From a virus (Duplodnaviria > Caudoviricetes): a stretch of DNA of 62,421 nt. Positions 2,873-41,484 of this stretch are shown here, one piece after another. Under the pieces are notes generated by a model that saw nothing but the letters and a program-made list of their open reading frames with translations, had not been told where the DNA came from and made no database searches. How positions within the stretch are numbered: the stretch's first letter is position 1; each line of letters opens with the position of its first letter. Made by a program: the position numbers and the translations under genes. The stretch is from the IMG/VR virus record IMGVR_UViG_3300033508_000392, positions 1-62,421 of that record. The stretch is one strand, 5' to 3'.

Positions 2873-3586
2873 ATGGAACTTAGCAGAGAATTGAGGATGA
2901 TTATGAGCCATGCGTTTAACAAAGCACGTGAGCTCAAGAATGAGTATCTGATGCCCGAACATATTCTTTACTCCATTGTTAAGAATGATGAGGTCATTGT
3001 TGATAAGCTAAATATTGAACAAGACGATATTTTGGAAGATTTAACTGCCTTCTTCCAGACTAAAATCCCTCCTGCCGTTGATGGTCGCCAACCCGTTGAG
3101 TCTTTGGGCTTCAACCAGGTTATTCAAGCTTCTGTACAGCAGGTTGAGAACTCTTCACGTCAGACTGTGGAGGTTGGAGATATTCTTATTGCTATTTTTA
3201 ACGCGGGCGGTCAGTCTCGCTACATTCTTCAGAAGTATGGTATTGAGAAGGAAGACCTTCTTGAGGCTGTCACTGATACCCAAAGGGGCGATATGGAAAC
3301 CGAACAGCCTGAAGCACAGCAGCCTGGTGCTGCTCCTCGCAAGAAGAAGTCTATGCTTGAGGAGTATGCTGTCGAACTTGTCCAGCAGGCTCGTGATGGT
3401 AAGCTTGACCCCATTATCGGCCGTGACGCAGAGATTGAGCGTACTGTTCAAATCCTTTGCCGTAAGAAGAAAAACAACCCCATCCACGTCGGCGAAGCTG
3501 GCGTAGGTAAGTGTTTGGATGGAGATGAAAAAATTAAAATTCTTGTATCTGATGAATTGTACGAAGAATTAAAGAATTTTATTTAA
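2873..3586 (+). CDS. clpA: ClpA N-terminal part (Clp-N domain and start of AAA-1) fused to a 24-aa split-intein N fragment
   Basis: LDPIIGRDAEIERTVQILCRKKKNNPIHVGEAGVGK followed by CLDGDEKIKI...stop. Confidence 0.92.
   Translation: MELSRELRMIMSHAFNKARELKNEYLMPEHILYSIVKNDEVIVDKLNIEQDDILEDLTAFFQTKIPPAVDGRQPVESLGFNQVIQASVQQVENSSRQTVEVGDILIAIFNAGGQSRYILQKYGIEKEDLLEAVTDTQRGDMETEQPEAQQPGAAPRKKKSMLEEYAVELVQQARDGKLDPIIGRDAEIERTVQILCRKKKNNPIHVGEAGVGKCLDGDEKIKILVSDELYEELKNFI
3512..3583 (+). mobile_element. Split intein N fragment (IntN, 24 aa, block A only)
   Basis: Cys1 directly after Walker A GK; CLDGDEKIKI matches intein block A. Confidence 0.88.
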
Positions 3587-4669
3587 TTTGCTTTTAATGG
3601 ATTCAGACACAATAAGTTTATTGTGTTCTATTGTGTCTGAATCCCATAATACTATGACATCAAATCCATTTTCAACAGCAAGTTTATTCTTATACTGATC
3701 AAATTTAAAAACATCATTTGCAGATTGTTTTGTAAATTTATGTTCCCAGGTATTCCACTCTTTTTCATTTAATACATTTTTATTTGGATGAATATGAGAA
3801 CCGTTATATTCGAATATTAATTTAAGTGGCAATATTGTAAAATCATAAAAATATAATCTGTCTGTGTCTTTTATAAAAAATTCTTTATTATCTTGGATGC
3901 CCATAAATAAGTTTTTTATTCCAAAAATATTAATCAATTTATAATAAAATTCTTCAAAAATAACTAAAGATTGTTTTGACGCTTTTTTCATGGATGAATT
4001 TTTTAAATTTTCTATACATGTTTTGGTGCAAGCTTTTATCCAACCATCGTATTTAATAATCACTTTATCATATCCATACTTATCTATCATTTTTTCTAAT
4101 GATATGGCTTTTGATTTGTTTAGTTCGTTCATATCATTATTTTTAGTCAACGAATTAATCCATTTAACGTTTCTTTCTTTTAACCGATTTAGTCCTTCTT
4201 TTTCACCATATTTTTTAATAATTTTGTCTCGTGAAAAAACTGACTGTCTTTCTTTAATTTTATTTGTAGCTTCTTCTTTTGTCAAACCTTTTTTAATCCA
4301 ATACCCAACTTGTGTTGATGTTCTTGCCGCATATGATTCGGGGTTTAATTTTTGTTTTTCACTGTATTTCAATCCGTTGCCTATTTGTAGCGTAGATATT
4401 TTTTCTTTAGCTTCAATTTCTGTCCAACCTCTTAGAAACCAAAATTTAACCTGCAATATTGTTGATCTTTCTGATAAAGAATAACAGAATGTTTGCAACT
4501 CTTTATACCCTATTTTTTTATTTATATTAAAAAATTCATTTAATTTGTCTAATATATTTTCTATAGATTTATATTTGAATTTTTCTTGAAGAAATTTGTC
4601 CATAAACTGGATAAAATCGTTTTTACTGTCTGATTCAAAAAGTTTTGTTTGACGGTATGTAATAAGCAT
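3569..4669 (-). CDS. Endonuclease-like protein (C-terminal Vsr/PD-(D/E)xK-like domain) lying antisense between the clpA halves
   Basis: YFYDF...IFEYNGSHIH...GFDVIVLWDSD; K-rich KYG repeats; own AAGATAA motif and GGAG SD. Confidence 0.75.
   Translation of the reverse strand: MLITYRQTKLFESDSKNDFIQFMDKFLQEKFKYKSIENILDKLNEFFNINKKIGYKELQTFCYSLSERSTILQVKFWFLRGWTEIEAKEKISTLQIGNGLKYSEKQKLNPESYAARTSTQVGYWIKKGLTKEEATNKIKERQSVFSRDKIIKKYGEKEGLNRLKERNVKWINSLTKNNDMNELNKSKAISLEKMIDKYGYDKVIIKYDGWIKACTKTCIENLKNSSMKKASKQSLVIFEEFYYKLINIFGIKNLFMGIQDNKEFFIKDTDRLYFYDFTILPLKLIFEYNGSHIHPNKNVLNEKEWNTWEHKFTKQSANDVFKFDQYKNKLAVENGFDVIVLWDSDTIEHNKLIVSESIKSKLNKIL
3599..3644. repeat. Perfect 16-bp inverted repeat, 14-nt loop
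   Basis: GGATTCAGACACAATA (3599-3614) / TATTGTGTCTGAATCC (3629-3644). Confidence 0.9.
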
Positions 4670-4785
4670 ATATACTCCTGGTTTAGGTTTTTTCCTACTC
4701 CAGTTTATCTTTTAATAAATTTTAAGTTTGTGTTGTTTTCTTGAAAGATAATAGCATATATTATATAGATATTGAGGAGGAATAA

Positions 4786-5196
4786 ATGAAAGAGGTTGAC
4801 ATTAAGATTGGAAAGCTTTTTACTTTCCTTGAAAGCAAAGGCTATCAGTTTAAAGTGGATGAAGGTGTAGAGTCCAACTTAGATATTAAAATCCAAGATG
4901 AAAATTCTAATTGGCAAAATGTTCCCGCTTTTATCAAAAAGAAAGATGTTGTCCATGAAATTGGTCTAAATGATTTTGTATTCAAGTGTGGTTCAAAACA
5001 TAAAATTTGTGTAAATAAAAATACAAAAGAATGTAAATTTGCTTCTGATATCAAAGTTGGAGATGTTTTTGATTATGATGATATCATTTATACGGTTAAG
5101 TTCAACAATGTTGTCGGAGAAAATTTTGTATATGACATCCAGATTGATTCTGAAAATCATCTATACAAAACACCAAATGGGTTGATTAATCACAAT
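4786..5196 (+). mobile_element. Split intein C fragment (IntC) containing blocks B, F and G
   Basis: CGSKH (block-B-like His), VYDIQI (block F), terminal HN followed by Thr+1; more AT-rich than the extein. Confidence 0.88.
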
Positions 5197-6828
5197 ACGG
5201 CGATTACTGAAGGTTTGGCTCAGCGTATTGCTGCTGGTACCGTTCCTGAGATTTTGGCTGACTATGAAATCTTCTCCCTTGATATGGGCGGTATGCTTGC
5301 TGGTACCAAGTACCGTGGTGACTTTGAAGAGAGGATTAAGAAGATTGTTAAGGAAGTTGAACAGAAGGAAAAGGCCATCCTCTTCATTGATGAAATTCAT
5401 AACATCATTGGTGCTGGTCAAACTGGTCAGGGAACTATGGATGCCTCAAATATCTTGAAACCCTCCCTCTCCTCCGGAAGACTCCGTGTTATCGGTTCAA
5501 CTACCTTTGATGAGTATAAGAAACATGTTGAGAAGGATGCTGCTCTTGCTCGCCGCTTCCAGAAGATTGACATCGATGAACCTTCTGAGGAAGAGACTTT
5601 TGAAATCCTCAAGGGATTGCAGAAGAATTACGAAGAGTACCACAATGTCCAGTATACTGAAGATGCCCTCCGTTCTATTGCAAAGCTCTCTCACCTCTAT
5701 ATCAATGACCGTCACCTCCCTGATAAGGCTATTGACGTTATGGACGAAATCGGTGCCCTTCTCCGTATGCGTAACTTCAAGAAGAATGAAAAGGATCCCA
5801 TCTCTCTCCTCGTAACTGAGGCTGATGTTGAGAACGTTGTCTCTAAGATTGCCAAAATCCCTGAGAAGACCGTCTCCACCGACGAGACTGCTAAGCTTGG
5901 TACTCTTGCTGCTGATTTGAAGGCTCAGGTCTTTGGTCAGTCGGAAGCTATTGACCAGATTGTTCAGGCAATCAAACGCTCGCGTGCCGGTTTCCGCAAG
6001 AAGGATAAACCTGTGGCAAACATCCTCTTTGCTGGTAAGACTGGTGTTGGTAAAACCCACCTTGTCCGCAAGTTGGCTGAGACTATGGGTCTGACCCTCC
6101 ACCGCTTCGATATGTCTGAGTACCAGGAGAAGCACACTGTTGCTAAGTTGGTTGGTGCTCCTGCTGGTTATGTTGGTTATGAGGAAGGTGGTCTCTTGGT
6201 TGACGCCATCCGTAAGGAACCTCACTCCATCCTCCTCTTAGATGAGATTGAAAAGGCTCACTCTGACATCTATAACATCCTGTTGCAGGTTATGGATTAC
6301 GCCACCCTTACTGATAACCAAGGTAAGAAGGCCGACTTCCGTAATTGTATCATCATCATGACTTCTAATGCTGGTGCCCGCAATATCGGTACTAAGCCTC
6401 TTGGATTTGGAAGTGTTGCTCGCGGAGGTGAAGCTGTGGACACTGCTGTTGAGAAGTTCTTCTCACCTGAGTTCCGTAACCGTCTTGATAAGGTTGTGAC
6501 TTTCAATGACCTCACTTCTGAGGTTATCCGTGAGGTTGTTAAGGCTGAGATTAAGGAATTTGAAGGCATGCTCACCGAGAAGGGAGTTTCCCTCTCCATC
6601 ACCGATGCTGCTATCGACTGGTTTGTTAAGAACGGTTATAGCGACAAGTTTGGTGCTCGTCCTATCGCCCGCTTGGTTGACGATAAGATTAAGGACATCT
6701 TTGTTGATGCTGTTCTCTTCGGTGATTTGAAAAGTGGTGGTAGTGCAGAGATTGATGCTATTGATGGTGAGATTAAGGTTAATACCTTGAATCTCAATCT
6801 TGGCAATGCCCTAGCTCTTTCCGTATAG
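4786..6828 (+). CDS. clpA: Split-intein C fragment (137 aa) fused to the rest of ClpA (AAA-1 remainder plus AAA-2)
   Basis: ...VYDIQIDSENHLYKTPNGLINHN then TAITEGLAQRI; AGTKYRGDFEER, LFIDEIH, GKTGVGKT, LLLDEIEKAH, PEFRNRLD; SD GAGGAGG. Confidence 0.95.
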   Translation: MKEVDIKIGKLFTFLESKGYQFKVDEGVESNLDIKIQDENSNWQNVPAFIKKKDVVHEIGLNDFVFKCGSKHKICVNKNTKECKFASDIKVGDVFDYDDIIYTVKFNNVVGENFVYDIQIDSENHLYKTPNGLINHNTAITEGLAQRIAAGTVPEILADYEIFSLDMGGMLAGTKYRGDFEERIKKIVKEVEQKEKAILFIDEIHNIIGAGQTGQGTMDASNILKPSLSSGRLRVIGSTTFDEYKKHVEKDAALARRFQKIDIDEPSEEETFEILKGLQKNYEEYHNVQYTEDALRSIAKLSHLYINDRHLPDKAIDVMDEIGALLRMRNFKKNEKDPISLLVTEADVENVVSKIAKIPEKTVSTDETAKLGTLAADLKAQVFGQSEAIDQIVQAIKRSRAGFRKKDKPVANILFAGKTGVGKTHLVRKLAETMGLTLHRFDMSEYQEKHTVAKLVGAPAGYVGYEEGGLLVDAIRKEPHSILLLDEIEKAHSDIYNILLQVMDYATLTDNQGKKADFRNCIIIMTSNAGARNIGTKPLGFGSVARGGEAVDTAVEKFFSPEFRNRLDKVVTFNDLTSEVIREVVKAEIKEFEGMLTEKGVSLSITDAAIDWFVKNGYSDKFGARPIARLVDDKIKDIFVDAVLFGDLKSGGSAEIDAIDGEIKVNTLNLNLGNALALSV

Positions 6829-35571: not shown

Positions 35572-36241
35572 TTTTGCCCTAAAGACAGGTGATGGGGATT
35601 TTGAAACTAAAGTATTACATTACGCCTGTGTGATGGAACCAGATACTTACTCAATAAAGAGATTTAATAGAGCTGAAGATGTTCCCTCAGACTACATCAC
35701 ATTTGGTAATATAGATTGGGTTACAGATTGTTTAGGTAAAGTTCCTACCCCAGACTACTATCCCGATTTTGTCAAACATCTCCTCAGAAGGAAAGTTTGG
35801 AAGGAAGAGAATTGGCCAATGCATTTAAAGGAAAGTGTTTTCATAAAACCATTTGACAAACCAAAACGTTATCAACATATAATAACAAGACCTGGTTCTT
35901 ATAAAGGCAAGAAGAAGGGACCTCACTGGTGTTCTGAAATAATTAAATTTGGTAATGAATGGAGATTGTATGTTCAAGACGGAAGAATAGTATATAGCGG
36001 ATGGTATTATCCAGAACCAGGTCCAGATGTAAGTTGTCCTCAAGAATATATAGATGAAATACAGGATTGTATCCCAAGTGGGTGGTGTGGAAGCATAGAT
36101 ATTGGTGAGTATAACGGGAAATTAACTCTTGTAGAATGCGGGGAGCCATACGGCACAGGATTTTATGGTCCAATAACAGACGGAAAAATATACGCTGATT
36201 GGTCATTCGCTGGATGGAAATGGATAAAGGAGCATATGTGA
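35564..36241 (+). CDS. ATP-grasp domain protein (R2K-like)
   Basis: PDYYP, VFIKP, EWRLYV, DIG...LVE. Confidence 0.65.
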   Translation: MNNFALKTGDGDFETKVLHYACVMEPDTYSIKRFNRAEDVPSDYITFGNIDWVTDCLGKVPTPDYYPDFVKHLLRRKVWKEENWPMHLKESVFIKPFDKPKRYQHIITRPGSYKGKKKGPHWCSEIIKFGNEWRLYVQDGRIVYSGWYYPEPGPDVSCPQEYIDEIQDCIPSGWCGSIDIGEYNGKLTLVECGEPYGTGFYGPITDGKIYADWSFAGWKWIKEHM

Positions 36242-36410
36242 ATTTAGTAACAACTGAAGATTATGAAGAAGAATTTGATGGTCTATGGGCTGGCAGTTTT
36301 ATCCATAATGTCATTCTTAAGGATGGATTTTATACTGGAATATGGGCGAGCCAAATGGGTATATATAGGGTGAGTGTTCCCCATGAAATTTGTAAAGTAA
36401 AAGAAGACAA

Positions 36411-36794
36411 ATGAAATTAGGTTTGGATATTCATGGTGTTTTAGATAGTAATCCAGATTTTGTTACATTGGCTATAAACACCAGAGCCGTGGGAGGTGAA
36501 GTACATATTATAACCGGTTCCTCTTATGACGAGGATTTAAACTTCCTCCTCCTCAGTTTGAGTAAAGGTGTTGTCTTTTGGGATTATCTCATCTCTGTTC
36601 AAGATGAATTGGCCAAGGTGATGCCGCATTCCTATATTGATAAACATGGTCGACCTTGTTGGGATGATGATGTATGGGATGCATTTAAGGGAGGATATTG
36701 CGACAGAAACAATATAGATGTTCACTATGATGATACTGAAAGATATGGCCAGTACTTCACCAAGACAACATTTATATTATACAAGAGTATTTAA
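36411..36794 (+). CDS. HAD-like hydrolase
   Basis: GLDIHGVL, IITG, K...HYDD. Confidence 0.65.
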   Translation: MKLGLDIHGVLDSNPDFVTLAINTRAVGGEVHIITGSSYDEDLNFLLLSLSKGVVFWDYLISVQDELAKVMPHSYIDKHGRPCWDDDVWDAFKGGYCDRNNIDVHYDDTERYGQYFTKTTFILYKSI

Positions 36795-36901
36795 TTTAAT
36801 GAAATTGCTATAATAATAAAAATGTAATTTAAAAAAGTTTTCTTATTTTTAAAATAAACTTGGTTTATATAAACAAGATAAGAATATAAAGTTAGATATC
36901 T

Positions 36902-37025
36902 GGGGGTGATTTAGAATCGATTGAAATTAAGATTTAGTTCGACGTAAGGCCTACAACATCGAAAGAACTAGTTCATTAAAATGATGCTTGGTTTCAAGAC
37001 TGGGGGGCGGATCCCCACACCTCCA
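36902..37025 (+). ncRNA. ssrA: Miniature tmRNA-like RNA (tRNA-like domain plus P2; only about 55 nt of interior)
   Basis: Acceptor GGGGGTG/CACCTCC with G3-U wobble and discriminator A; unpaired D-loop analogue ending TCGA; 11-bp P2 TTGAAATTAAG/CTTGGTTTCAA; GAC; T-arm TGGGG-GGCGGAT-CCCCA. Confidence 0.85.
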
Positions 37026-37109
37026 TTTTTAAGTGAGTAAATATATATTACATAATGCCTGTGTCACATGCAAATTTGCTCTTTTTAATATAGTTTTATT
37101 GGATAAAAA

Positions 37110-37424
37110 ATGGATAATAGACAAAATATGGCATTTACTAGAGTTGATCATGAATATGTTATAAAGGAACATGTTGAAGAACTAAAACAGTGTCTTGAGG
37201 AAGAGATTACTGGAGGTAAACTTGATCACATCAACGCAGCGCGCGTATGCATTGAACAATTAATCCCTCCTCTCAAAGAAAAAAAATATGTTGTTGATAG
37301 TTATGTAGAAGAATTAAAAGAATGTATTGACGAAGAAATTATCCGGGGTGTAGAAGATCAGGTTAAGGCTACACAAATATGTATTGAAAATATAAGTAAT
37401 TTGATGAAAAAACTACATCATTGA
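37110..37424 (+). CDS. Hypothetical protein made of a tandem ~44-aa duplication
   Basis: YV...VEELK.C..EEI..G..D...A...CIE twice. Confidence 0.7.
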   Translation: MDNRQNMAFTRVDHEYVIKEHVEELKQCLEEEITGGKLDHINAARVCIEQLIPPLKEKKYVVDSYVEELKECIDEEIIRGVEDQVKATQICIENISNLMKKLHH

Positions 37425-37472
37425 TGTATAAATTTGAGCTCCAGCTTGCATTAATGCTAAAGAGGGGAAAAT

Positions 37473-37814
37473 ATGACTATAGGTCTTTTGTATGAAGATT
37501 ACTGTAAAGAACGTGATCTTGAGTTTATTAAAAGATTTGAGGGTAAATGGATGTATGGAAATGATACATTTTATTACCATATAATAAAAGATTTCCTAGT
37601 CTTTAAGTCTGATAGTTGTTCCATTATTGATAGGGTTCAACTGACAATAAAAGATATATTATCATTTGAAGAAATAACCGATGAATTGTTTTTATCTCAA
37701 TTAAATACTGTCTTGGTAAAAGCATATCTTAATGGGGTATATTTAGAGAGAAAATATCCCGTTGGTTGGTATAAATTTGCAACCAAGAGAGTAAATATTA
37801 TGGAGGAAAAATGA
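37473..37814 (+). CDS. Hypothetical protein
   Basis: GAGGGG SD. Confidence 0.6.
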   Translation: MTIGLLYEDYCKERDLEFIKRFEGKWMYGNDTFYYHIIKDFLVFKSDSCSIIDRVQLTIKDILSFEEITDELFLSQLNTVLVKAYLNGVYLERKYPVGWYKFATKRVNIMEEK

Positions 37815-37937
37815 AACAGCATGATAAGCTTGTACCGTTAAATGAAAATTTGTATTTTTTAAAAAAATTTATTGAAAATAAAAAACTATACGAAGTTGAT
37901 ACACCTCCACCGATTTTGTTTATAAATAAGGAAAAAA

Positions 37938-38354
37938 ATGAAACCGCCTAAAATGTCCATAATAGTGAGAAAGGATCTTAATATGAGACGCGGAAAATCC
38001 TGTGCGCAGGCGAGTCACGCGGCAATGAAAGTTTTCTTTGATAGGATGAAAAAAGTAGAAGCTGATCCATTTGCATTTGAGGGTAATGGGAAAGACTTGT
38101 ATGAAACTTCATTCACTCCTGAAATGGAAGAATGGAAGAATGGTCTTTTTACCAAAATTGTTTTGGGCTGTGATAATGAAGAAGAAATTCACTTTCTTAA
38201 AGCTAAGGCTGATGAATTAGGAATTCCAGCTGCTATCATTATTGATTCTGGTCTCACTGAGTTTGGTGGAGTACCAACTATCACCTGCATTGCCCTTGGT
38301 CCGTATAAGGCAGAAGTACTTGAAGAATTGACTTCGAAATATTCATTATTATAA
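37938..38354 (+). CDS. pth2: Peptidyl-tRNA hydrolase, PTH2 family
   Basis: IIVRKDLNMRRGKSCAQASHA, KIVL, IIDSGLTEF, TCIALGP. Confidence 0.92.
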   Translation: MKPPKMSIIVRKDLNMRRGKSCAQASHAAMKVFFDRMKKVEADPFAFEGNGKDLYETSFTPEMEEWKNGLFTKIVLGCDNEEEIHFLKAKADELGIPAAIIIDSGLTEFGGVPTITCIALGPYKAEVLEELTSKYSLL

Positions 38355-38388
38355 TATAAATACCTTTGTTTAGACAAGATAATATTGT

Positions 38389-39006
38389 ATGAGTAAAAAA
38401 GATTTAATAGAAGAAAAAGCTTTATTGCTGCAAGAAATACATCACCGGGTAAAAAACAATTTTCAAATTATTATTTCATTAGTTGAATTACAAATTGTTC
38501 GTCATCCGGAAAGCAGAAGTGTTTTTATCGACCTAATTAGTCGTATTCGTTCAATGTCTCTTATATATGAAAATCTTCTACTTGCCGATAATCTTAATTA
38601 TATTAAATTTTCAGATTACGTAAAAATTTTAATAGATAGTATAACAACAAGTTTAAAGTCTAATATTAATTTTATTATAAAATTCAGTGACGATTTAATT
38701 CTAAATCTAGAACAAGCAACATCAATCGGAATAGCAATAAATGAAATATTAATTAATATTGTTCATCATGCATTTAAAGAACAAAAATCTAAGAAAGCAG
38801 AAATAACTTTATACGAAAAAGATGGCAGGGTTTATATAGCAATAGAAGATAATGGTATTGGTATTGATTCAAAATTTTTAAAACATGATTCTTCTACTCT
38901 TGGCTTAAATCTTGTAAAAATGCTTATAAAAAATCAACTTGAAGGTAATATTAATATTATCAACGATAGTGGTACAAAAATATTTTTAGATTTTAAAAAG
39001 GATTAA
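38389..39006 (+). CDS. Histidine kinase core (HisKA_2 plus HATPase), no sensor domain
   Basis: LLQEIHHRVKNNFQII, INEILINIVHHAF, IEDNGIGI, TLGLNLV. Confidence 0.88.
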   Translation: MSKKDLIEEKALLLQEIHHRVKNNFQIIISLVELQIVRHPESRSVFIDLISRIRSMSLIYENLLLADNLNYIKFSDYVKILIDSITTSLKSNINFIIKFSDDLILNLEQATSIGIAINEILINIVHHAFKEQKSKKAEITLYEKDGRVYIAIEDNGIGIDSKFLKHDSSTLGLNLVKMLIKNQLEGNINIINDSGTKIFLDFKKD

Positions 39007-39008
39007 TT

Positions 39009-39724
39009 GTGTTGAATTATAAAGAGATAGTTAAACTACCATTTATAGATGACCCATTTTTTTATCTCGACAATATTTTAATTAATGATATCAAGGTATT
39101 ATTTCCTACTGTACAGGATGGTATTGATACCTTATATGATAAATATGAAGGTGTTGAGGTATTTGATATATGCACTTTATTATATGACAATGGATTTATA
39201 ATATCTCTTGGATTTGACGTTGAAAATTTTGACTATGATGAAAATGAAGAAGAGGGTCAATTCCACTCTGGTACAATTGATATATTGTTCAATAATGACT
39301 TTGCTATCGATCGTTGCAATTCATCTATGGATTAAGAAATGGTAACAAACAGTATAATATTTTCGGAGTAAAGCATATTTAAAAGAAGAGGTGAATGATG
39401 CTTTCTGCTGGTGTTGTTATCAAGTATAAAGAATACAGAGATAAGGAACTTGAACCTGGATGGAGCTACATCCTTCTTAAGGGAAGGAGAAAGATTTCAG
39501 AGGGTAAGTACATCTACAAAGTAGAAGAATTAGAACTTATTTATAGAAAAACAAATGAATATAAATTTATAAAAAGAGAAATAACAAGTTCGGTTCTCAA
39601 CAAACTTGTAGCTAATCTGAGTGACACCTGGCGTCACAAATGGACAATAAAAAAAATTGAATATACAACTGCTGAAGAGTGCAACTGGGATTCAATGGTT
39701 GCCAAGCTTTTATTACTCTCATAG
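39009..39724 (+). other. Two hypothetical ORFs (39009-39335, 39395-39724)
   Basis: Tiled ORFs. Confidence 0.55.
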
Positions 39725-39753: not shown

Positions 39754-39759
39754 ATGGAC

Positions 39760-41484
39760 ATGAACAATGACAAATGGAATAGTTTGACCCACAATGGTCC
39801 AGTCTTCCCTCCTGCTTATGAAGCCAAGGGTTATCACGTCTTTGTAGCCGGAGTTCCTACTGTCCTCTCCCCTGAGGCTGAGGAAATGGCTTATGCTTGG
39901 GCTCAGAAGCATGCCACAGATTATATCAAGGACAAGCTCTTTCAGAAGAACTTCTACAGGGACTTTAGTGCCCTCCTCCCTAAGAACTTGAAAATTGCCA
40001 AGTTCCCTGAACAGTGGGACTTCCGCAACGTCATCCGTGACATTGAGGCTAAGAAGGAACTTCGCTCTCTTGAAACCAAGGAAGAGAAGAATAAGAAGAA
40101 GGCGGAAGCTGCCGCGGTTAAGGCCATCTATGGTTGGGCCAACCTCAATGGTGAAGCCGTTCCTCTTGGCAACTACATGATTGAACCTGCTGGTCTTTTT
40201 ATGGGCCGCGGCGATCACCCGGCCAGAGGCTCATGGAAAATTTCGGTTCGTCCTGAAGACATCACCATCAATCACTCTGTTTCCACCCCCGCTCCCAAGG
40301 CTCCTGAAGGTCATAATTGGAAGGCTGTTGTTGAAAATAAGAATGCCCTCTACATTGCCACCTGGGTTCAGGAACTGACTGGTGAGTACAAGAAAGTACT
40401 TTTTAGTGCTGATAGTATTGTCAAGCAATCTTCCGACCAGAAGAAGTTTGATAAGGCCATCAAGCTCGCCAAGAAGCTCGACTATGTGAATTGCGAGATT
40501 GACAAACTCCTGGATAGTAAGCTTGTTCAGACCCGCAAGCTTGCCACCGTTAGTAAGCTCATCTCTCAATTGGCCATTCGTGTTGGTGATGAAAAGGGTG
40601 AGGATGAAGCTGCAACATTTGGAGCAAGTTCTCTCCTAATTTCGCATATTAAAATTGATGCTCAGAAGAAGACTGTTGAGCTTGACTTCTTGGGTAAGGA
40701 CAGCGTTCGCTACAATAATGTTGTCTCCTTCTCTGACTCGATGATTCGCAACCTCCTCTGGTTGTCTGAGGGTAAGAAGCCCTCAGACCAGCTCTTCCCT
40801 GGTGTCAACTCCTCTGATGTCAATGAATTCTTTGGCAACATCCTGGAAGGTGTGACTGCCAAGGTCTTCCGCACCGCTTATGGCTCCAAGCTCCTTGCTG
40901 AGGAGTTGGCCAAACAGGATGTGAGCAAGCTAACTGCTGGTCAGAAGCTGAAGTACTTCACTGATGCCAACCTCACTGTTGCCAAAAAGCTCAACCATCA
41001 GACGGCCATCTCTCCTGCTTACAAGGAAGGTGTGGCTAAGATGAAGGAACAGCTCAAGGAACTGAAGCTCGAGTTGAAGACTCACAAGGATGAGACCAAA
41101 GCTCAGGTTGAAGAAGCCAAAACTCTGCGTGATGCTGTCTTGGCTAAGGCTGCTTCCTATACTGGCGATAGGAAGAAGGATGCTGTTCGCCGTGCTAAGG
41201 CTTCCTACGACAAGAAGGTTGCCTCTATTGAAGCGAAGACTACACGTATCCAGACTCGTATTGATAACTTTGAGGCCAAGCTTGACATCAAGCAGAAGAC
41301 GGCTGGTGTTGCCTTGGGTACGAGTAAGACCAACTATAGTTCGCCAAGAATTGCTTTTTCTTTCTGCAAGGCTAACAATATTGATTCTAAAAAAATTTTT
41401 ACTCCAACGCTCCAGCGTAAATTTGCTTGGGCAGCAGATACTAATTCTGAATATTATAAAAATTACCCTAATGTAGATTACTAA
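39760..41484 (+). CDS. DNA topoisomerase IB, long archaeal/eukaryote type
   Basis: KWNSLTHNGPVFPPAYE, NYMIEPAGLFMGRGDHP, AIRVGDEK, DFLGKDSVRY, TAKVFRT, LNHQ, coiled-coil linker, GTSKTNY. Confidence 0.93.
   Translation: MNNDKWNSLTHNGPVFPPAYEAKGYHVFVAGVPTVLSPEAEEMAYAWAQKHATDYIKDKLFQKNFYRDFSALLPKNLKIAKFPEQWDFRNVIRDIEAKKELRSLETKEEKNKKKAEAAAVKAIYGWANLNGEAVPLGNYMIEPAGLFMGRGDHPARGSWKISVRPEDITINHSVSTPAPKAPEGHNWKAVVENKNALYIATWVQELTGEYKKVLFSADSIVKQSSDQKKFDKAIKLAKKLDYVNCEIDKLLDSKLVQTRKLATVSKLISQLAIRVGDEKGEDEAATFGASSLLISHIKIDAQKKTVELDFLGKDSVRYNNVVSFSDSMIRNLLWLSEGKKPSDQLFPGVNSSDVNEFFGNILEGVTAKVFRTAYGSKLLAEELAKQDVSKLTAGQKLKYFTDANLTVAKKLNHQTAISPAYKEGVAKMKEQLKELKLELKTHKDETKAQVEEAKTLRDAVLAKAASYTGDRKKDAVRRAKASYDKKVASIEAKTTRIQTRIDNFEAKLDIKQKTAGVALGTSKTNYSSPRIAFSFCKANNIDSKKIFTPTLQRKFAWAADTNSEYYKNYPNVDY

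Follow-up and report, generated by a model that had tools for sequence, protein, structure and literature searches.

A miniature one-piece tmRNA relative with an alphaproteobacterial-type tRNA-like domain in a large T4-like phage

Introduction

Transfer-messenger RNA (tmRNA) is usually about 350 nt long and carries four pseudoknots; what share of it is truly needed has long been asked. The same question is raised by a 124-nt element on the plus strand (36902-37025) of a 62,421-nt stretch of viral DNA, hereafter the window, which is an entire IMG/VR virus record (IMGVR_UViG_3300033508_000392) with an estimated completeness of 29%. Is this small element a tmRNA, and what could it do without most of the parts of one? 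An earlier note on the window had read it as a tmRNA in miniature whose alanine-type tRNA-like domain (TLD) is complete and whose mRNA-like domain is almost absent. The first part of that reading is supported by the anatomy of the element and by matches of its D-loop and T-arm to validated tmRNAs: judged by sequence, the element is a tmRNA relative, and its TLD is of the alphaproteobacterial kind and the alanine type. Taken as a whole, identity included, we favor on balance the view that it is a phage-encoded, miniaturized one-piece ssrA-like gene whose RNA would restart translation on a short frame of its own, with the chain released free of a degron.

Results

Anatomy of the element

The sequence and a minimum free energy (MFE) fold place the RNA parts of the 124-nt element in the arrangement that the earlier note had described. 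On the plus strand of the window these parts are as follows.

36902-36908, plus strand: 5' strand of the acceptor stem, GGGGGTG, with the G3 of the G3-U pair (sequence and fold)
36909-36920, plus strand: stemless D-loop, 12 nt, ending in TCGA (sequence)
36921-36931, plus strand: 5' strand of the P2 helix, 11 nt (MFE and centroid folds; a constrained fold gives the same helix)
36932-36986, plus strand: 55-nt stub of an mRNA-like domain inside P2 (fold)
36934-36940 with 36965-36971, plus strand: hairpin 1 (predicted from the single sequence)
36946-36954, plus strand: putative restart (resume-codon) context AANGCNNAY, with GCC at 36949-36951 (conserved motif)
36949-36984, plus strand: candidate tag frame 1, 11 codons and TGA, AYNIERTSSLK-stop (translation)
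36950-36979, plus strand: alternative frame 2, 9 codons and a TAA in the loop of hairpin 2, PTTSKELVH-stop (translation)
36973-36976 with 36981-36984, plus strand: hairpin 2, loop TAAA (predicted from the single sequence)
36987-36997, plus strand: 3' strand of the P2 helix (MFE and constrained folds)
36998-37000, plus strand: GAC linker preceding the T-arm (sequence; the same in the RF01849 and RF04321 consensus)
37001-37017, plus strand: T-arm, a 5-bp stem and the 7-nt loop GGCGGAT, alphaproteobacterial type (RF01849 match and likeness to phage Phosso)
37018-37025, plus strand: 3' strand of the acceptor stem, CACCTCC, and the discriminator A, CCA not encoded (sequence and fold)
37026-37030, plus strand: run of five T right after the discriminator, possibly a transcript end or 3'-processing context (sequence)

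The acceptor stem has 7 bp (GGGGGUG/CACCUCC) with a G3-U pair, and the D-loop, which reads AUUUAGAAUCGA, has no D stem. P2, with 11 bp including two G-U pairs, replaces the anticodon arm; the T-arm reads UGGGG-GGCGGAU-CCCCA. Several features that characterize a tmRNA are present: G3-U and A73 as alanine identity, a stemless D region ending in UCGA and followed by P2, and the T-arm. The fold described in the earlier note (acceptor with G3-U, D-loop, P2, GAC, T-arm and discriminator) is thereby borne out. The MFE of the element is -33.5 kcal/mol (z -1.79), and 7 of 200 shuffles folded equally well; the tmRNA-type architecture was recovered by both the unconstrained MFE and the centroid folds.

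None of the pseudoknots PK1-PK4 was found in the 55 nt inside P2, which fold as two small hairpins by a method that is blind to pseudoknots. The space inside P2 is probably too small for a pseudoknot ring. Both hairpins named earlier within the stub are present in the fold, and the remark that no pseudoknot ring is obvious holds up. All parts stand in the standard, unpermuted order within 124 nt, and the circular permutation that defines RF01849 is absent. A promoter and terminator scan gave 0 terminator sites at the T run and nothing above chance near the element.

A tRNA-like domain of the alphaproteobacterial type

When 138 nt were searched alone, the 3' half matched RF04321 at 23.4 bits (E 0.0021; cut-off 47), and RF01849 matched at 36998-37032 with 14 bits (E 0.0086; cut-off 50). 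The RF01849 consensus runs GAC-CCGGG-GGCgGUA-CCCGG-CGcCUCC, to be compared with GAC-UGGGG-GGCGGAU-CCCCA in the element; the consensus loop GGCgGUA agrees with the earlier assignment of the GGCGG T-loop to the alphaproteobacterial type. Rfam tRNA-like families other than tmRNA gave no match at E up to 10.

The 5' signature of the element, comprising GGGG, three bases and the D-loop 12-mer, was found at nine IMG/VR loci. Six of them are two-piece phage tmRNAs, and at the other three (L003, L004 and L009) no tmRNA was called. The two-piece phage tmRNAs at L001, L005 and L006, which pass RF04321 at 67.7-77 bits, have the D-loop 12-mer of the element letter for letter; L002 and L008 repeat the sequence of L001. 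ARAGORN calls L005, L006 and L007 (318-326 nt), with the tags ANADTYAIAA and ANDDYALLAA. As an observation in its own right, the two-piece phage tmRNA at L001:3429-3518, the same in L002 and L008, scores 73 bits with RF04321 and has an unusually long tag of 29 codons, ANASKGEVTVSGKNIKFSARSVKRQLLAV, followed by a stop.

At the other end of the element, the linker, T-arm and acceptor strand are near-identical in Sinorhizobium phage Phosso by blastn. It is this likeness, together with the D-loop identity and the partial RF01849 and RF04321 matches, that leads us to assign the TLD to the alphaproteobacterial type. The Phosso locus is worth describing separately. On the minus strand of PV764938.1 (349553-350242) an RF01849 (alpha_tmRNA) match of 108 bits spans about 690 nt and encloses that T-arm. 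The GenBank record has no feature under the T-arm match, and ARAGORN made no call on the 1.2-kb locus.

One-piece minis in phages and bacteria

Eight one-piece miniature tmRNAs (minis) of 108-124 nt were compared: the window element, L011, L012 and those of five Chloroflexia genomes, the one with L013 and four more. L011 is a 108-nt mini on a metagenome contig, and L013 is a 120-nt mini on a genome contig of a metagenome-assembled genome (MAG) of Chloroflexia; both, like L012, were found with a loosened pattern. L012, 123 nt, lies on a metagenome contig that is phage-like (amidase, DNA methylase), has its CCA encoded and is followed directly by a tRNA-Ile. A covariance model, R1, was built from these three and the window element, and among 101 genomes sampled from one Chloroflexia order it detected minis in 5 (L064/L018 and L065-L068; 119-123 nt). 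Each of the five has a full-length tmRNA in addition (125.8-198.6 bits). The RF00023 gathering score is passed by half of the eight minis, namely L012 (63.2 bits), L064 (49.3), L065 (60.8) and L066 (68.6), and not by the window element, L011, L067 or L068.

In the 8-sequence alignment the acceptor and T stems are paired in 96 of 96 cells, and both-sided changes occur in 5 of the 12 pairs, namely acceptor pairs 5 and 6 and three T-stem pairs. G3-U is kept in all eight. The covariation score was reached by none of 500 shuffles, and slid controls pair in only 41-63%. Part of this pairing is due to the way the sequences were selected, because GGGG and YYCCA were set in the search pattern and the same pairs are part of R1; for L011-L013, the pattern put no constraint on the variable positions of the stems.

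Two of the Chloroflexia genomes gave further observations. The L064/L018 mini (G001:C8:3963777-3963896) immediately follows 23S-5S rRNA and is identical in T-arm and acceptor strand to the full tmRNA of the same genome. Genome G102 has a second mini-like match.

A conserved, probable restart context and short frames

The motif AANGCNNAY is present in 8 of 8 minis, with its GCS starting at nt 48, 38, 51, 49, 51, 49, 49 and 48; it appeared in 2-9% of 2000 dinucleotide shuffles of each mini interior. The same form is seen at the resume sites of the two-piece phage tmRNAs L001 and L006 and in the consensus of RF04321 (UAAaU followed by GCa AAC). Because the form matches these true resume sites, we read the motif as a likely restart signal with the first two codons, Ala and then Asn, His or Tyr. 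The claim that there is almost no mRNA-like domain is therefore only partly right. The pseudoknots and an Ala-Ala tag are indeed missing, but the stub keeps a canonical, conserved resume context.

The two frames given in the earlier note, AYNIERTSSLK-stop and PTTSKELVH-stop, both translate as stated, and neither carries an Ala-Ala degron, ending in ...SSLK and ...ELVH, respectively. All three frames of the window element meet a stop within the stub (by eye). An in-frame stop follows the motif in four of the eight minis, after 11 codons in the window element, 10 in L012, 5 in L064 and 5 in L065; L011, L066, L067 and L068 run to the 3' end with no such stop. The GCC frame, AYNIERTSSLK, is favored by the Ala codon, which is near-universal, and by how the element aligns with the other minis. 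The tag itself is unproven.

A chance fold is excluded and an assembly artifact unlikely

A degenerate architecture pattern gave a single match in the window, exactly at 36902-37025, and matched 0 of 100 shuffles; the uniqueness of the match and the shuffles together exclude a chance fold. On a crude open reading frame (ORF) map 101 gaps have a median of 11 nt, and the one that holds the element, 315 nt long, ranks third in size. With a GC of 0.435, compared with 0.14 and 0.226 in the flanks, the element stands out as a sharp GC island.

An assembly collapse of a longer ssrA had been named in the earlier note as fatal to its reading. A 151-nt unitig of run X2 covers 36882-37032 with 1 difference, and two unitigs of run X1 cover 36864-36998 and 37013-37163 with 0 differences. 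Since unitigs of these two other public runs hold the same sequence, a collapse is unlikely, with the limit that one of the two runs may be the source sample of the phage record. Runs X4 and X5 have no cover over 36910-37260, which is neutral for either reading.

Relatives at the locus

Searching positions 36000-39500 by blastn against GenBank phages returned no match, and positions 36880-37050 returned short pieces only, of which the Phosso T-arm was the sole informative one. The exact 3' pattern had 0 matches in IMG/VR, as did the whole-architecture pattern, validated on the window, and a looser version of it. A pattern with the loop GGCGGAT fixed matched only within coding sequence of high GC, and this match was rejected as chance. 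IMG/VR contains no relatives of the downstream ORF; those of the upstream ORF are numerous, with the closest (P0002-P0013) at 50-64% identity.

Thirty-six IMG/VR loci around relatives of the upstream gene were compared; they are distant, with at most 45% identity for that protein. One or more tRNA genes lie within 3 kb at 11 of the 36, and the 5' motif occurs at none. A weak R1 match in the whole records of relatives proved to be coding sequence. The upstream gene itself (36411-36794; phrog_13623, KVP40.0164-like) has an invariant MKLGLD..HGV start and is widespread in large phages (loci L026-L061). Two observations at IMG/VR phage loci stand apart from the element: L035, one of the upstream-gene loci, has 11 tRNAs, and at L058:1285-1380 ARAGORN calls a tRNA-SeC with anticodon tca.

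The phage and the neighboring genes

The source is a large T4-like phage, as RIIA and RIIB are encoded in the window and the closest named relatives of the upstream gene are in KVP40-like T4-type Vibrio phages (GenBank), where no tmRNA is annotated. Short matching pieces of the sequence were found in freshwater and microbial-mat runs. The predicted host is an alphaproteobacterium. ARAGORN found no tRNA in the whole 62 kb.

Near the element are genes for an AAA_28 ATPase, an R2K ATP-grasp enzyme, a PTH2, a HisKA_2 kinase and a long-form topoisomerase IB. The PTH2 gene (PF01981, E 7.7e-29; 37938-38354) starts 913 nt downstream of the element. The suggestion that Pth2 might clear the peptidyl-RNA gained no comparative support: PTH2 is absent among 10 scanned ORFs of the phage contig L012, the only other mini-bearing phage contig with enough context for this check. 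The idea stays at the level of the possible.

Three other genes of the window deserve mention. The topoisomerase IB (39754-41484) is of the eukaryote-type long form and, in this T4-like phage, comprises a catalytic core together with the N-terminal DNA-binding fragment and the C-terminal domain. The kinase (38389-39006) is a stand-alone HisKA_2/HWE-type histidine kinase core of 205 aa. A ClpA/ClpB-type double-AAA ATPase gene lies in pieces at 2873-6828 and may be relevant, since ClpA degrades SsrA-tagged proteins in some bacteria.

Discussion

A putative route to ribosome rescue without a degron

The element keeps an alanine end and a putative restart signal and lacks the pseudoknots and the degradation tag, and for this reason it probably diverts the host rescue system. 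RNase P and 3' nucleases would trim the transcript, and a host enzyme would add the CCA. Alanyl-tRNA synthetase (AlaRS) would then charge the RNA by way of G3-U and A73. Bound to host SmpB and EF-Tu, the charged RNA might enter ribosomes stalled at mRNA ends, in competition with the two-piece tmRNA of the host. It would take over the nascent chain, and translation would restart on its own short frame, so that the chain could be released with the tail Ala-AYNIERTSSLK and no Ala-Ala degron. The net effect would be that ribosomes are freed in infection while their products stay unmarked for destruction by ClpXP or ClpAP.

A bolder version goes further, and we advance it only tentatively. The element would be the smallest natural tmRNA to carry out complete trans-translation, with 124 nt, no pseudoknot, its own frame of 9-11 codons and a degron-free phage tail. 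Truncated proteins would be spared or re-addressed, for example to the phage ClpA-like ATPase (2873-6828), and the gene would be a reversion from two pieces to one, otherwise described only for a jakobid mitochondrion.

Evidence on the other side

A number of observations weigh against a restarting one-piece tmRNA. The detectors that the earlier note had proposed, the Rfam tmRNA models and ARAGORN, do not recognize the element at gathering score: ARAGORN returned 0 genes on the window, the Rfam gathering-score scan of the window returned 0 matches, and at E up to 10 on 801 nt no tmRNA family appeared. On the phage's own record RF00023 had 0 matches and RF01849 reached 5.2 bits only; RF02544 had none on the element and a sole match elsewhere in the window (E 3.12). 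The partial RF04321 and RF01849 scores lie far under the Rfam cut-offs.

Comparative evidence has its own limits. The 8-of-8 count of the restart motif comes from a motif defined after the data had been seen, with five of the eight sequences from one lineage; in the same way five of the eight minis in the stem alignment belong to a single bacterial order, and four of these five were detected by R1, which had been built on the remaining four sequences. R1 found nothing at the 36 upstream-gene loci beyond a tRNA-Ala, that is, no tmRNA-like element at the locus of distant relatives, and neither R1 nor RF04321 gave a real match in five whole records of relatives. Moderately diverged relatives of this particular element, from which selection could be read, were not found among these loci and records. 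In the window, which covers about 29% of the genome, no gene for SmpB and none for a CCA-adding enzyme was detected. No RNA runs are listed among the runs with matching pieces.

The frame is also ambiguous. The tag frame is not conserved across the class (stop in 4 of 8), and AT-rich sequence can be expected to give a stop by chance within 12 codons. The main determinant of the frame in E. coli is A86, which precedes the resume codon by four bases (the U85/A86 rule, cited from an excerpt of PMC2481249). The GCC frame has a U at -4 where this rule calls for an A; spacing from the UA of the motif gives CCU, the PTTSKELVH frame, and this +1 frame fits the E. coli spacing better than frame 1.

Alternative explanations

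The alternative that we take most seriously, and consider quite possible, is a pure decoy: an RNA that attaches to SmpB, possibly also to AlaRS and EF-Tu, or goes into stalled ribosomes, with its stub never translated, so that host trans-translation is blocked and the restart motif would be only a second SmpB contact. A precedent is phage DS6A, whose tmRNA has little beyond the TLD, and a TLD-only-like molecule is described as a strong inhibitor of tmRNA whether chargeable or not (excerpts of PMC4131195, citing Mao et al. 2009, and of PMC11915505). The lack of an in-frame stop in four of the eight minis points the same way, as does the position of P2, which starts 2 nt past the TGA, so that reading to the stop would need P2 unwinding. 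A decoy, however, could make do with the TLD alone, which is about 65-80 nt in DS6A and plastids according to the excerpted PMC11915505. In all eight minis a stub of more than 40 nt is nevertheless retained, in which the restart context keeps a fixed spacing, and the window copy has in-frame stops.

That the element is instead a decaying remnant, an internally deleted tmRNA gene without function, appears improbable to us. It would account for the absence of a similar element from the 36 loci and five records of relatives, for Rfam scores under threshold and for the lost CCA, and the excerpted PMC11915505 reports that tmRNA database curators discarded large-internal-deletion sequences of some MAGs as artifacts. 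It sits poorly with the intact state of 12 stem pairs, G3-U, A73, D-loop and restart motif, with the sharp GC island in a tightly packed genome, and with the independent recurrence of the compact architecture in phage-like contigs and in 5 of 101 genomes of a Chloroflexia order that have a full tmRNA. Less credible still, and very improbable in our estimate, is an origin outside tmRNA: a fold due to chance, an attP-type piece of a tRNA or tmRNA gene from the host, or membership in a different tRNA-like RNA family. Blank ARAGORN and Rfam gathering scans are what such an origin would predict, but the architecture pattern matched 0 of 100 shuffles, matches to validated tmRNAs exist for both the D-loop and the T-arm, Rfam yielded no other tRNA-like family at E up to 10, and the phage is T4-like (RIIA/RIIB). 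The attP-type fragment was rejected on the ground that both complementary acceptor halves are present, which attP does not need. A tRNA with an intron was considered and rejected as well.

What a natural mini would mean

A natural 124-nt form would offer a minimal substrate for asking what SmpB and the ribosome need for restart. It also raises the question of whether phages rescue ribosomes without marking proteins for destruction or jam host quality control. The conserved restart context, common to phage minis and to bacteria that have a full tmRNA, suggests by sequence a shared function; no description of such a shared mini function was found in the literature searched. As ARAGORN and the Rfam cut-offs miss such genes, minis go unannotated in phage genomes.

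Comparison with known systems

No paper on a miniature tmRNA by that name was found in the literature searched, although the supplementary taxonomic breakdown of PMC11915505 may list phage minis. Much around it is known. Phage tmRNAs, one-piece and two-piece, have been described (excerpts of PMC4131195 and PMC9004378). The earlier note's statement that tag-less tmRNAs have precedents is supported by the excerpted PMC11915505, in which a 'Standard, no CDS' class (CDS, coding sequence) makes up 9 of 97,179 sequences. The decoy idea is in print for phage DS6A and for a TLD-only construct (excerpt of PMC4131195). What the window copy adds, as far as its sequence tells, is an alphaproteobacterial-type domain in unpermuted order.

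The TLD-only tmRNA of Mycobacterium phage DS6A shares with the element a phage-encoded, one-piece form with an alanine-type domain and no pseudoknots or degradation tag (excerpts of PMC4131195 and PMC11915505), and both are likely competitors of host tmRNA for SmpB. Unlike DS6A, here compared by description, the element keeps an 11-bp P2, a 55-nt stub, the restart context and a short terminated frame and is thus not devoid of a message part, and its T-loop is of the alphaproteobacterial type.

In most Alphaproteobacteria the tmRNA gene is permuted and in two pieces (excerpt of PMC9004378). With the two-piece tmRNAs of the alphaproteobacterial type (RF01849 and RF04321; marine myophages in the excerpted PMC9004378; Phosso) the element has in common the D-loop of L001, L005 and L006, a Phosso-like T-arm and linker, and the form of the restart site. 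It differs from them in being unpermuted, with 124 nt in place of an acceptor and a coding piece, in having no Ala-Ala tag end and in scoring far below the Rfam cut-offs.

Strong reduction and an alphaproteobacterial ancestry are shared with the jakobid and oomycete mitochondrial tmRNA (RF02544) and with the CDS-less Mallomonadaceae plastid forms of about 65 bp (excerpt of PMC11915505). The same excerpt describes the tmRNA gene in the mitochondrion of Jakoba libera as 're-permuted', which is the order change that we infer for the window element. These forms, in contrast to the element, are organellar and without any tag frame, and RF02544 has no match on the element. The standard one-piece tmRNA (RF00023) has the same order of parts, from acceptor, D-loop, P2, restart site and frame to P2, T-arm and acceptor. 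Against this type the element is about a third as long, lacks PK1-PK4, has a T-loop of another type than UUCGA and gives no RF00023 match.

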